Positions 6,900-13,647 of a stretch of DNA of 39,816 nt are shown one piece after another. Source of the stretch: Escherichia phage BA14; sequence record NC_011040.1. The stretch is one strand, 5' to 3'. The notes beneath the pieces were generated by a model. The model searched no databases. It worked only from the letters and a program-made list of their open reading frames with translations, and had not been told where the DNA came from. Made by a program: the position numbers and the translations under genes. Position 1 is the stretch's first letter; every line of letters starts with the position of its first letter.

Positions 6900-7976
6900 A
6901 TGGAAATCACATTCAAGACTAACCCTTTTAAAGCTGTATCCTACGTTGAGTCTGCCATTAAGAAAGCACTCGACAAAGCTGGCTACCTGATTGCTGACAC
7001 TAAGCATGATGGTGTACGTGGTAACATCGTGGTTGACAATACGGCTGACTGCCTGTGGCTATCCCGTGTCTCCAAGACCATCCCCGCGCTTGAGCACCTT
7101 AATGGGTTCGACCAACGCTGGGCTAATGTTCTCAAAGATGACCGCTGGATTTTCCCTGATGGCTTCATGCTTGATGGTGAACTGATGGTCAAAGGCGTAG
7201 ACTTCAACACAGGGTCTGGCCTACTGCGTACCAAGTGGCTCAAGAAGACAAACTGTGGATTTGATATTGGTGGAGTAGAGCCTCTCAAGGGGAGTAAAGT
7301 AGACTTCTGCTTAGACCCTAAGAAACTTAAGGTTGTCCTGTATGCTGCTATGCCGTATCACGATATGGTAGAAGGCAAAGAGTATGGCGTTATGTCCCTC
7401 CTGATGCAAGAGCATGTGCGTTACCTCATTCCGGTTCTTAGTGAACACTTCCCGGAAATCACTTGGGAACTATCTGAAGCCAAGGAAGTCTACGACATGG
7501 TAGAACTTCAGGAACTCTACGAGAAAGCTCGTGCTGAAGGTCATGAAGGTCTGGTTGTCAAAGACCCGCTGGAAGTCTACAAGCGTGGTAAGAAGTCTGG
7601 CTGGTGGAAGATGAAACCTGAGAATGAAGCTGATGGTGTTATCGTTGGCCTCAATTGGGGTACTCCGGGTCTCGCTAATGAAGGCAAAGTGATTGGCTTC
7701 GAGGTTCTCCTTGAGTCAGGTCGCGTAGTTAACGCCAACAACATTAGCCAAGAGTTGATGGACGAGTTCACCGAGAAGGTAAAGGAGAAGACACTAAGTG
7801 ACTGTGGGTTCTTCAGTCCATACGGAATCGGAGACAATGATGCCTGTACGCGTAACCCTTATGAGGGCTGGCAGTGTCAGGTAGCCTACATGGAGGAAAC
7901 ACCAGACGGTTCTCTGCGTCACCCATCGTTCGTTATGTTCCGTGGTGTCGAGTCAGACCCAACGGTCAAGATGTAA
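6900..7976 (+). CDS. 1.3: ATP-dependent DNA ligase (gp1.3)
   Basis: 358 aa; adenylation motif TKHDGVRG near the N-terminus; length and position as T7 ligase. Confidence 0.95.
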   Translation: MEITFKTNPFKAVSYVESAIKKALDKAGYLIADTKHDGVRGNIVVDNTADCLWLSRVSKTIPALEHLNGFDQRWANVLKDDRWIFPDGFMLDGELMVKGVDFNTGSGLLRTKWLKKTNCGFDIGGVEPLKGSKVDFCLDPKKLKVVLYAAMPYHDMVEGKEYGVMSLLMQEHVRYLIPVLSEHFPEITWELSEAKEVYDMVELQELYEKARAEGHEGLVVKDPLEVYKRGKKSGWWKMKPENEADGVIVGLNWGTPGLANEGKVIGFEVLLESGRVVNANNISQELMDEFTEKVKEKTLSDCGFFSPYGIGDNDACTRNPYEGWQCQVAYMEETPDGSLRHPSFVMFRGVESDPTVKM

Positions 7977-7986
7977 ATCAACATAT

Positions 7987-8020
7987 GGTCAGACTTTCGG
8001 GTCTGGCCTTTTCGTGTTTC
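7987..8020 (+). terminator. Intrinsic terminator after ligase (TE position)
   Basis: GGTCAGAC-tttcgg-GTCTGGCC 8-bp stem followed by TTTTCGTGTTTC. Confidence 0.6.
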
Positions 8021-8041
8021 TATTAGACTCACTATGGAGGA
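8019..8041 (+). promoter_or_regulatory. Phage RNAP promoter, divergent (tcTATTAGACTCACTATGGAGGA)
   Basis: Core GACTCACTAT retained, upstream half degenerate, initiating GGAGG as in T7 phi1.5/phi1.6 as I recall them. Confidence 0.5.
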
Positions 8042-8049
8042 ACAACCTC

Positions 8050-8130
8050 ATGCTATTTCTAATTATTGCTAGCGTTGCTGCCACGTTTGCCTTCGTTATC
8101 ATTGACGACAACTGCTGGCCTGATTGCTAA
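8050..8130 (+). CDS. Hypothetical 26-aa hydrophobic peptide
   Basis: ATG 9 nt after a GGAGG RBS; MLFLIIASVAATFAFVIIDDNCWPDC; lies between two phage promoters. Confidence 0.4.
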   Translation: MLFLIIASVAATFAFVIIDDNCWPDC

Positions 8131-8150
8131 TACGACTCACCTATGGAGGA
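8128..8150 (+). promoter_or_regulatory. Phage RNAP promoter-like sequence with altered -4 to -1 (TAATACGACTCACctatGGAGGA)
   Basis: Perfect -17 to -5 match, but four substitutions in the -4 to -1 melting region. Confidence 0.4.
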
Positions 8151-8157
8151 AACACTT

Positions 8158-8421
8158 ATGTTACGACTACACTTCAACAAATCAAATGGCATCTTCTCTG
8201 CCCGTGGCGCTGACCGTTCAACCGTTCTGGCCTCTGAGAAACACGCAGTCATTCCTAAAGTGCTTGGCTCGACCATTGAGTTGGCACCTCGTGTTCACGC
8301 TGTGATTACGACTGGCTTATATAAAGAAGCGACCACTGGCTCCCGGCCTTTCATTCCGGTTCTCGTCACCCGTTTCCCTAAAGTCCGTCTGGTGATTGCA
8401 CGTATCAAGGAGGTGTTCTAA
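8158..8421 (+). CDS. Hypothetical protein (gene 1.6 position)
   Basis: 87 aa from ATG 8158 with RBS GGAGGAAAC; the longer ORF-track start at 8143 lies inside the promoter and lacks an RBS. Confidence 0.6.
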   Translation: MLRLHFNKSNGIFSARGADRSTVLASEKHAVIPKVLGSTIELAPRVHAVITTGLYKEATTGSRPFIPVLVTRFPKVRLVIARIKEVF

Positions 8422-8792
8422 TGTCTGGTTGCATCGCATGTTTAGAGAAAGATGACCGCTACCCGCATACCTGCAAAACAAAGCACACCAGTGAGTGTAC
8501 AATCTGGAATGGTGCTGGTGTATGTAGTTGCACTAAGTCAGACAAACCACAAGATATAGAGGGTGTTCGGACTCCGAGCCACTATATGTTGTTTGATGAC
8601 ATTGAGGCTATTGAAGTGATTGCCCGGTCGATGACCCGCGAACAGTTCAAAGGGTACTGCTTAGGGAACATCCTTAAGTACCGCCTCCGTGCTGGTAAGA
8701 AATCCGAACTGGCATTCTTAGAGAAGGACATGGCGAAAGCTGGGTTCTACGGTGAACTGTACGAGAAACATAAAGGTAAGTGCTATGCTTAA
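8421..8792 (+). CDS. gene 1.7-position protein with N-terminal Cys cluster and a phage-typical C-terminal module
   Basis: 123 aa, RBS AAGGAGG; six Cys in the first 40 residues; the C-terminal pattern TPSHY...IEVI...LGNILKYRLRAGKK resembles a widespread small phage domain (DUF3310-like, from memory). Confidence 0.65.
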   Translation: MSGCIACLEKDDRYPHTCKTKHTSECTIWNGAGVCSCTKSDKPQDIEGVRTPSHYMLFDDIEAIEVIARSMTREQFKGYCLGNILKYRLRAGKKSELAFLEKDMAKAGFYGELYEKHKGKCYA

Positions 8793-8883
8793 ACCTAGCG
8801 AATGGTGTGAGCGTATGTTTGAAAAGACAGGCAACACCGACTACCTTGAATTATATAATCACTGGAAGGAGAGAGGACAATGA
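8785..8883 (+). CDS. Small protein (gene 1.8 position)
   Basis: 32-aa ORF bridging the 1.7 stop and the gene 2 start with overlapping start/stop codons. Confidence 0.45.
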
Positions 8884-9071
8884 GCACTCTGAATAAAGGG
8901 TCACTGGTAAACGGTGACAAGAAGTTCTTCGCTACGGTAGAAGGCCAAGGCCAATCGTTCGAAGTACCTGTGTTCGCTACGTCTCTTGAAGAGGCCAATG
9001 AGTTAGCTGAGTGGCAATACGTCCCTGCTGGCTTCGCTGTAACACGCATCCGTCCAGACCGTAAGGTTTAA
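8880..9071 (+). CDS. 2: gp2, inhibitor of host RNA polymerase
   Basis: 63 aa; [19 protein letters not shown] matches T7 gp2 as I recall it. Confidence 0.85.
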
Positions 9072-9091
9072 TAGGACTCACTAATGGGAGA
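9069..9091 (+). promoter_or_regulatory. Phage RNAP promoter TAATAGGACTCACTAATGGGAGA (phi2.5-like)
   Basis: T7-family core overlapping the gene 2 stop; 5' leader GGGAGAcactaacgTTTCCC can fold. Confidence 0.75.
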
Positions 9092-9139
9092 CACTAACGT
9101 TTCCCACTTTTAACTTTCAGAAACTAAAGGAGAATCATT

Positions 9140-9838
9140 ATGGCATTCGCAAAACGTAAAGTATTCACTTCCGCTCGTGGTGTTGCTGAACCTTACTGCT
9201 ATCTGGCAAAGCCGGACTTCGGTAGTGGTGACTTCAAGAACGAACGTGGTGTCTACAAAGTATCACTGACTGTATCCAACGACGACCCTCGCTGTCAGAA
9301 AATGATTGACGAGATTGTCGAAGCCCACGAAACGGATTACGCTGCACGTCTGGAAGAGTACGAAGCGAACCCGCCGAAGGTAGTTAAGGGCAAGAAACCA
9401 CTGAAGCCATACGTTGGCGACATGCCGTTCATGGATAACGAAGACGGAACCACAACGTTCAACTTCAAGTGCTACGGCTCGTTCACTGACAAGAAGACTG
9501 GTGAGAACAAACCAATCGACTTGGCTATCGTGGACTCCAAAGGTAAGCGCATTCGTGGTGAGCGTCCAGCTATCTCTGGTGGCTCTGAACTGAAGATTAA
9601 ATACACTCTGTTCCCTTACGGTTGGTCTGCTGTGGCAGGTGCTTCCGTTAAGCTGCAACTGGATTCCGTGATGCTGATTAAGCTGGTCGAGTTCGGTGGT
9701 GGTGATGACGATTGGGGTGATGAAATCGAAGAAGACGGCTACGAAGCTGATGAAGCACAGACCCGCAAGCCTCAAAACGACTCTGGCTGGAATGAAGAAC
9801 CAGAAGAGGACGACGACGACGATAGTGGTGATTTTTAA
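9140..9838 (+). CDS. 2.5: Single-stranded DNA-binding protein (gp2.5)
   Basis: 232 aa; conserved PRCQKMIDEIV and GASVKLQLDSVML blocks and an acidic C-terminal tail ending DF, as in T7 gp2.5. Confidence 0.95.
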   Translation: MAFAKRKVFTSARGVAEPYCYLAKPDFGSGDFKNERGVYKVSLTVSNDDPRCQKMIDEIVEAHETDYAARLEEYEANPPKVVKGKKPLKPYVGDMPFMDNEDGTTTFNFKCYGSFTDKKTGENKPIDLAIVDSKGKRIRGERPAISGGSELKIKYTLFPYGWSAVAGASVKLQLDSVMLIKLVEFGGGDDDWGDEIEEDGYEADEAQTRKPQNDSGWNEEPEEDDDDDSGDF

Positions 9839-10740: not shown

Positions 10741-10830
10741 ATGATGATTATTCATGAGATGGGCATGTACGATATGATTTACCGCTGTGTATTCGTTCTG
10801 GCATTGACCTATATCTTAACTCGTAAGTAA
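10741..10830 (+). CDS. Hypothetical 29-aa hydrophobic peptide
   Basis: ORF MMIIHEMGMYDMIYRCVFVLALTYILTRK starting 5 nt after the amidase stop; weak RBS. Confidence 0.35.
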   Translation: MMIIHEMGMYDMIYRCVFVLALTYILTRK

Positions 10831-10850
10831 TAGAACTCACTATGGGAGAG
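10828..10850 (+). promoter_or_regulatory. Phage RNAP promoter TAATAGAACTCACTATGGGAGAG
   Basis: T7-family core with G at -1; transcript starts with a GGGAGA...TCTCCC stem-loop. Confidence 0.65.
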
Positions 10851-13624: not shown

Positions 13625-13647
13625 CTATTCAACTCACTAATGGGAGA
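13625..13647 (+). promoter_or_regulatory. Phage RNAP promoter (ctattcAACTCACTAATGGGAGA)
   Basis: Core ACTCACTAATGGGAGA with degenerate upstream half; 9 nt upstream of the next ATG. Confidence 0.6.

Follow-up and report, generated by a model that had tools for sequence, protein, structure and literature searches.

The phi1.5, gene 1.5 and phi1.6 cassette of Escherichia phage BA14, with phi1.6 as a probable weak class II promoter

In Escherichia phage BA14, a 26-codon open reading frame (ORF) lies between two sequences that resemble promoters of the phage single-subunit RNA polymerase (RNAP), and the second of them combines a perfect binding half with an unusual melting region. Two questions are raised by this locus: whether the second site is a working promoter, and whether the short ORF is a gene. 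The original prediction considered the second site to be either a very weak promoter or a decayed one that has been retained for polymerase binding or pausing. Here, we analyzed the locus within the whole stretch of available DNA (39,816 nucleotides, sequence record NC_011040.1; hereafter the window) and compared it with related phages. The region is the known phi1.5 - gene 1.5 - phi1.6 cassette of the T7 group and has already been annotated; its features are listed in Table 1. The closest records in the phage collection were members of the genus Berlinvirus, to which BA14 belongs, for example, BSP161, 285P, FE44, Kvp1 and Yepe2. On the basis of current results, we consider it quite likely that BA14 carries this cassette with phi1.6 as a weak but active class II promoter. 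The module reportedly entered the T7 map with the genome annotation by Dunn and Studier in 1983, and gp1.5 is already annotated in BA14; the discovery value of the module as such is therefore small.

Table 1. Features of the BA14 cassette and its flanking genes (positions in the window)
Feature	Position	Strand	Basis
Gene 1.3 (ATP-dependent DNA ligase), last early-region gene	6900..7976	+	ORF; exact match to BA14 gp1.3
TE, intrinsic terminator for host RNA polymerase	7987..8018	+	Terminator scan and fold
phi1.5, predicted class II phage-RNAP promoter	8020..8042	+	Weight matrix, core conservation, orthologue annotation
Shine-Dalgarno GGAGG of gene 1.5	8036..8040	+	Read from sequence; overlaps -1/+1..+4 of phi1.5
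Gene 1.5, 26-aa micro-protein	8050..8130	+	BA14 gp1.5 annotation, PHROG 10145, synteny, pN/pS
phi1.6, probable class II phage-RNAP promoter variant	8128..8150	+	13/13 binding half, weight matrix, conservation, orthology
Shine-Dalgarno GGAGG of gene 1.6 (+1..+5 of phi1.6)	8145..8149	+	Read from sequence
Gene 1.6 (87 aa; BC10 family / PHROG 1777), first gene served by phi1.6	8158..8421	+	

The cassette begins directly after gene 1.3, whose relatives also carry a DNA ligase annotation. The terminator TE consists of a 9-bp stem with a 4-nt loop (7987-8008) followed by a T-rich tail (-15 kcal/mol, z = -4.6), and the orthologous terminator is annotated as 'TE' in T7 and Yepe2 and as 'rho-independent terminator' in Kvp1. 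No sigma-70 promoter could be identified across positions 7700-8500. The two phage promoters are in tandem, 108 bp apart and both on the + strand, so the description of them as divergent could hold for their sequences only. The elements overlap closely: the TAA stop codon of gene 1.5 (8128-8130) is the first triplet of phi1.6, and both GGAGG Shine-Dalgarno sequences, which were invariant in 19 core relatives, lie at or next to a predicted transcription start. In each promoter, the GGAGG at the beginning of the transcribed region is also the Shine-Dalgarno sequence of the gene that follows; both predicted transcripts would therefore start at the ribosome-binding site, with leaders of 13 nt. The transcripts predicted from phi1.5 and phi1.6, as well as positions 8036-8160 as a whole, folded no better than shuffled sequences (z = -1.3, +0.7 and -0.6, respectively). 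The sole fold feature, a 4-bp GAGG/CCUC hairpin that covers the Shine-Dalgarno sequence of gene 1.5, was dropped as not significant.

To score the two sites, we used a weight matrix (register -17..+6) built from 13 canonical promoters of the BA14 genome. Their consensus is TAATACGACTCAC-TA(A/T)T-GGGAGA, with T-A-(A/T)-T at -4..-1 in all 13. Canonical promoters scored 29-40 bits, whereas the best unrelated site scored 9.5; the maxima of 20 shuffles averaged 6.8 bits and one of them reached 16.2. The 13-mer TAATACGACTCAC occurs in seven exact copies in the window, all on the + strand, and about 1e-3 copies of one such 13-mer would be expected by chance in 2 x 39.8 kb. A third site of intermediate score (16.2 bits) was found at 10828-10850 (TAATAGAACTCAC TATG GGAGAG); as in phi1.5, its CAC is separated from the G run by just three bases (TAT), and its orthologue in Yepe2 is annotated as phi3.8. 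The promoter at 13625-13647 (CTATTCAACTCAC TAAT GGGAGA; 30.6 bits) has a canonical initiation region and shares an unusual CTATT upstream half with phi1.5.

The sequence of phi1.6 is TAATACGACTCAC CTAT GGAGGA. As predicted for 8128-8150, its binding half (-17..-5) matched the consensus at 13 of 13 positions, and the score of 16.5 bits was composed of +23.6 for binding, -4.9 at -4..-1 and -2.1 at +1..+6. The melting block CTAT fits TA(A/T)T at two of four positions and departs from it at -4 (T>C) and -3 (A>T). The previous count of four substitutions applies only if TATA of T7 is taken as the reference; against the BA14 block there are two. Neither -4C nor -3T was present in any of the 13 canonical BA14 promoters or in any other promoter of Yepe2. 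On the + strand, initiation would occur at G8145, 13 nt before the ATG of gene 1.6. The first site, phi1.5 (CTATTAGACTCAC TATG GAGGAA), is also present, and its -17..+6 register is 8020-8042, one base to the right of the 8019-8041 proposed before, with a predicted +1 at G8037 or G8036. This site had been treated as the promoter of the pair, but it is the poorer match: it scored 13.6 bits (rank 16 in the genome), which is above the 9.5-bit background but below the 16.2 bits reached by one of the 20 shuffles. Its mismatches are located at -17, -16, -13 and -12 (four of the six positions at -17..-12), with G at -1 and A at +2, whereas the core GACTCAC at -11..-5 is conserved (pi 0.015), and orthologous sites are annotated as phi1.5 in Kvp1 and Yepe2.

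The conservation of phi1.6 was then examined in an alignment of 23 distinct Berlinvirus-type sequences, and pi was calculated by site class in 19 core sequences. At -14..-5, pi was 0.011, and only one of ten columns was variable (a 1-nt deletion in one contig); the values were 0.158 at -4..-1 and 0.000 at +1..+5 (GGAGG). By comparison, pi at third codon positions was 0.195 in gene 1.5 and 0.234 in gene 1.6, and it was 0.234 in the spacer between the Shine-Dalgarno sequence and the ATG of gene 1.6. The binding half of phi1.6 was thus about 20-fold less variable than nearby silent sites in these 19 Berlinvirus sequences, and given that about 64% of silent and spacer columns were variable, the probability of observing at most one variable column in ten is ~7e-4. 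This near invariance relative to silent and spacer sites indicates that the recognition half is under purifying selection as a promoter sequence, and the idea of a decayed promoter fits such a pattern poorly. The variants observed at -4..-1 in the Berlinvirus alignment were CTAT, ATAT, ACAT or a form without the extra base (CAC-TAT-GGAGG), and more distant relatives have CAC-TAA-GGAGG at phi1.6.

The site was kept in 22 of the 23 distinct Berlinvirus sequences. It was missing from IMGVR_UViG_3300034358_000001 and from all sampled Klebsiella phages, and is dispensable in some relatives. In IMGVR_UViG_3300034358_000001, gene 1.5 is intact, and the ~170 nt upstream of gene 1.6 contain a duplicated phi1.5 upstream half (CTATACGACTCTATACGACTCAC) with a canonical TAAT|GGAGAG. 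Annotations of the orthologous site vary: it is named phi1.6 in Yepe2 and T7 and 'promoter' in FE44 and ETEP21B, and the annotators of Kvp1 listed phi1.5, the terminator and gene 1.5, yet no phi1.6. On promoters, the Kvp1 paper offers PHIRE-based logos only. The annotators of FE44 questioned the relevance of the promoter at the phi1.6 position because of its proximity to the downstream gene. We scanned viral contigs for the pattern TAATACGACTCAC-NNNN-GGAG-(5-10 nt)-ATG and found that this cassette is a conserved design of the T7 group, which occurs at phi1.5, phi1.6 and phi4.3 with a TAA stop codon before each. In about 14 T7-clade genomes, both promoters take the form of a TAA stop, TAATACGACTCAC, TAAA or TATA, GGAG and ATG. 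The conservation of this promoter/Shine-Dalgarno/ATG cassette, together with the TAA overlap, answers the doubt of the FE44 annotators. In the same scan, the tetrads CTAT (eight matches) and ATAT (three matches) were confined to Berlinvirus phi1.6, and every T7-clade cassette had TAAA or TATA. CTAT is a lineage-specific variant that probably makes phi1.6 weak but not dead. It should be noted that at 7049-7054 of Yepe2, gene 1.5 ends one codon early (TGA), yet the TAA that follows, at -17..-15 of phi1.6, is kept, which is consistent with a promoter constraint independent of the stop codon.

How weak might phi1.6 be? Weak promoters with non-consensus sequences are normal in class II of T7, and T7 promoter mutants in the initiation region were reportedly studied by Imburgio et al. 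in 2000. A 2025 NAR paper on the specificity of T7-like promoters is silent on -4..-1. RNA/DNA read ratios for variants of the T7 promoter have been provided by Komura et al. (2018; PMC5937735, file S2), who used T7 RNAP on linear engineered templates with one barcode per variant. Among the values in that file, the activity of wild-type TATA is ~169 (the reference), and TAAA, the form of T7 phi1.5 and phi1.6, is close to it (138-161). TATT reaches 73 (~43%), and TATG in two double mutants 22-26 versus 68-115 for the respective backgrounds. CATA, also in two double mutants, has values of 6.9 and 10.9 versus 115 and 192 for the single-mutant backgrounds. CTTA, the -4C/-3T double mutant, was taken as the variant nearest to CTAT; its activity is 3.63, ~2% of wild type (PMC5937735, file S2). 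The product of the single-mutant effects predicts ~1% of the T7 consensus, which is low enough that the site might be functionally silent. The RNAP of BA14 is 76% identical to that of T7 and has the same residues at the positions that align with N748, R756, Q758 and V237; therefore the transfer of T7 RNAP data is reasonable, although not proven.

Judged by these variant data, phi1.6 would bind the polymerase normally and initiate with roughly a few percent of the activity of a consensus promoter, and phi1.5 should be similarly weak. Such an estimate is within the strength assumed for T7 class II promoters, which have been simulated at 0.01 relative to phi10 (Jack et al., 2019; PMC6938266). The two unique bases, -4C and -3T, which cost 4.9 bits, and the ~2% of CTTA in file S2 fit the suggestion of a very weak promoter. 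This is the better of the two alternatives in the original prediction and agrees with what is known of class II promoters. Taken together, sequence and conservation point to phi1.6 as a conserved but weak class II promoter.

A different reading of the same pattern is that phi1.6 of Berlinviruses binds the phage polymerase without initiating, and has been kept as a binding site that could, for example, block or slow read-through transcription into genes 1.6-2 or act as a sink for polymerase. This is the second alternative of the original prediction, and we regard it as unlikely. The strong conservation of the recognition half while -4/-3 drift (C, A, AC or a deletion) speaks for it, as do the low activity of the T7 RNAP -4C/-3T double mutant in file S2 and the absence of this pair from the canonical BA14 and the other Yepe2 promoters. 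However, -4..-1 is intrinsically less constrained than -11..-5: among the variants with at least 1% activity in file S2 of PMC5937735, the wild-type base was retained in 82-90% at -4..-1 versus ~99% at -9..-7, and drift at these positions need not mean a loss of function. Moreover, GG at +1/+2, the 13-nt leader and the Shine-Dalgarno sequence are exactly as in functional T7 cassettes, and no pause heptamer is found nearby.

The heptamer ATCTGTT is the class II pause/termination signal of T7 RNAP. It has no occurrence on the + (transcribed) strand of the whole window, and the RNA folds described above are unremarkable; a pausing site, as suggested before, finds no support in either. On the - strand, the heptamer occurs seven times (11977, 20179, 21953, 23887, 28097, 30847 and 33493), and the total of seven is as chance predicts; this imbalance between the strands suggests that the heptamer is avoided in sense orientation. 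We are not aware of any T7-type promoter that has a biological role without initiating. The specific claim that Berlinvirus phi1.6 has been converted from a promoter to a binding-competent, melting-deficient docking site for the polymerase seems quite doubtful to us. If it were true, selection would act on -17..-5 only (pi 0.011) and the melting tetrad would be free to vary, and the docking site, as a brake or roadblock, could tune how much transcription from phi1.5 and the promoters before it continues into genes 1.6-2, or could hold the polymerase locally. With phi1.6 as a weak class II promoter, a decayed but retained binding site is not needed to explain the data.

It is also conceivable that the second site has no transcriptional role at all and has been conserved through recombination or gene conversion from other promoter copies, or for the translation of gene 1.6. 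Genomes of the T7 group do contain many near-identical 23-bp promoter copies (the seven exact 13-mers here are an example), and gene 1.6 needs GGAGG as its Shine-Dalgarno sequence with or without a promoter. Nevertheless, conversion from canonical copies would also restore TA(A/T)T at -4..-1, and none of the 22 Berlinvirus sequences with the site (of 23 distinct ones) has this block restored. As for translation, the conserved block TACGACTCAC is located upstream of the Shine-Dalgarno sequence and is identical to the promoter consensus at each base, whereas the spacer between the Shine-Dalgarno sequence and ATG varies freely (pi 0.234). We consider this possibility very improbable.

With regard to the second question, the sequence reads as predicted: a 26-aa hydrophobic ORF (ATG at 8050, TAA at 8128-8130) is preceded by a GGAGG that ends 9 nt before the ATG. 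Its product, MLFLIIASVAATFAFVIIDDNCWPDC, exactly matches the annotated gp1.5 of BA14 (ACF15736.1 / YP_002003459.1), and is composed of an 18-residue hydrophobic helix (mean Kyte-Doolittle hydropathy of the first 18 residues, ~2.8) followed by the acidic tail DDNCWPDC. It matched PHROG 10145 (E = 2.4e-17, 26 of 26 residues covered), and T7 gp1.5 belongs to PHROG 12128; in Pfam, no match could be found for either of the two proteins. In 70 of 72 loci across Studiervirinae, an ORF of the gene 1.5 type is located between ligase/TE and gene 1.6, a short distance before the latter; its design comprises 25-35 codons preceded by a Shine-Dalgarno sequence, a hydrophobic helix at the N-terminus and a (D/E)(D/E)N..WP acidic tail. 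This design is kept even where the DNA is unrelated to that of BA14, for example, in Klebsiella phages (MSINLILIIVFILAAIVWSMNDEPPKGA) and T3-like phages (MDNILYLYLFLILLMVITYPDDNWPET). Among Berlinviruses, pN/pS was 0.31 for gene 1.5 as a whole, with values of 0.47 for the helix and 0.01 for the tail DDNCWPDC, and diversity at the first, second and third codon positions was 0.120, 0.077 and 0.195, respectively, in the 19 core sequences, indicating codon periodicity. In the region 7000-9500, 43 ORFs of at least 20 aa could be identified, so the 26-codon ORF alone is within chance. It is the conservation that indicates that gene 1.5 is a real gene, which is predicted to encode a conserved single-helix membrane micro-protein. 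In a recent study, expression of T7 Gp1.5 in E. coli was toxic, an effect that was suppressed in stringent-like RNAP mutants (bioRxiv 10.64898/2026.01.27.700999). That the ORF is untranslated and a mere spacer between two promoters appears hardly credible: short ORFs are indeed common by chance in these 2.5 kb, Pfam has no match and the ORF was left unannotated in many relatives, but the ORF, Shine-Dalgarno sequence, length (25-35 aa) and design kept in 70 of 72 loci, some of them with unrelated nucleotide sequence, the pN/pS values, the codon periodicity, the PHROG match and the toxicity of T7 Gp1.5 all speak against it. Gene 1.5 may be described as a broadly conserved, predicted membrane micro-protein gene whose tail DDNCWPDC is very strongly constrained.

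The downstream gp1.6 matched Pfam PF06726 (E = 3.9e-19) and PHROG 1777 (E = 2.9e-38), and exactly the same protein is present in BA14 and many relatives. PF06726 is named 'Bladder cancer-related protein BC10', and the match covered 64 of 65 profile positions; a phage protein thus belongs to a family whose name comes from a human gene. Another ATG (8143-8145) lies within phi1.6 (-2..+1) in frame with gene 1.6 and would give a 92-aa reading, and this longer form is annotated in PhiV-1, vB_EcoP_S523 and ETEP21B. The ATG at 8158 is more likely to be the start of gene 1.6, because it is located 8 nt after GGAGG and is the same as the start in T7. At the position of gene 1.7, there is an ORF of 123 aa (8421-8792) with a Cys-rich N-terminus; gene 1.7 of T7 has 591 nt (about 196 aa), and its length also varies widely among relatives.

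How the module might work can be proposed as follows. Transcription of the early region by host RNA polymerase would stop at TE, past the ligase gene, where two tandem class II promoters for the phage single-subunit RNA polymerase come next. The second of them, phi1.6, would still bind the polymerase normally, because its -17..-5 half is perfect and under selection, and it would open and initiate poorly, because -4C and -3T disturb the melted TA(A/T)T block. It may then add a small increment of gene 1.6-2 message over the read-through from upstream phage promoters (5645, 6270 and 6796) and phi1.5, and should be easily shut off once lysozyme-bound polymerase moves to the strong late promoters. 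Such a shut-off is known behavior of T7 class II promoters.

Finally, we compared the module with those of T7 and Yepe2. In T7 (NC_001604), TE is at 7588, phi1.5 at 7778, gene 1.5 at 7791-7880, phi1.6 at 7895 and gene 1.6 at 7906, and the order of TE, phi1.5, micro-ORF, phi1.6 and gene 1.6 is the same as in BA14. The two phages also share the binding half of phi1.6 (TAATACGACTCAC), the TAA stop of gene 1.5 as the first triplet of this promoter, a GGAG(G) at +1 that doubles as the Shine-Dalgarno sequence, and a micro-ORF with a hydrophobic helix and an acidic tail (29 aa in T7, MMYLMPLLIVIVGCLALHCSDDDMPDGHA; 26 aa in BA14). The leaders have 13 and 11 nt in T7 and 13 nt in BA14. On the other hand, BA14 lacks gene 1.4, unlike T7, and hence its phi1.5 directly abuts TE, as in several T7-clade genomes. 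The upstream half of phi1.5 is degenerate in BA14 (CTATTA versus TAATAC in T7), and -4..-1 is TAAA in both T7 promoters, whereas it is TATG in phi1.5 and CTAT in phi1.6 of BA14. At the level of the enzymes, the 76% identity between T7 RNAP and its BA14 counterpart is accompanied by a BA14 consensus that has T at -1.

The curated annotation of Yepe2 (NC_011038, Berlinvirus) has TE, phi1.5, gene 1.5, phi1.6 and gene 1.6 at orthologous places. Its phi1.5 is TAATTAGACTCAC TATG GAGGAA, and its phi1.6 is TAATACGACTCAC ATAT GGAGGA, which combines a perfect binding half with non-consensus bases at -4/-3 and differs from the BA14 site in having ATAT instead of CTAT; gene 1.5 stops at TGA, one codon before that of BA14. 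In terms of the synthetic T7 mutants in file S2 of PMC5937735, phi1.6 of BA14 corresponds to a perfect promoter in which the two bases at -4/-3 have been substituted, and this natural variant with an intact binding half may serve as a naturally attenuated promoter.
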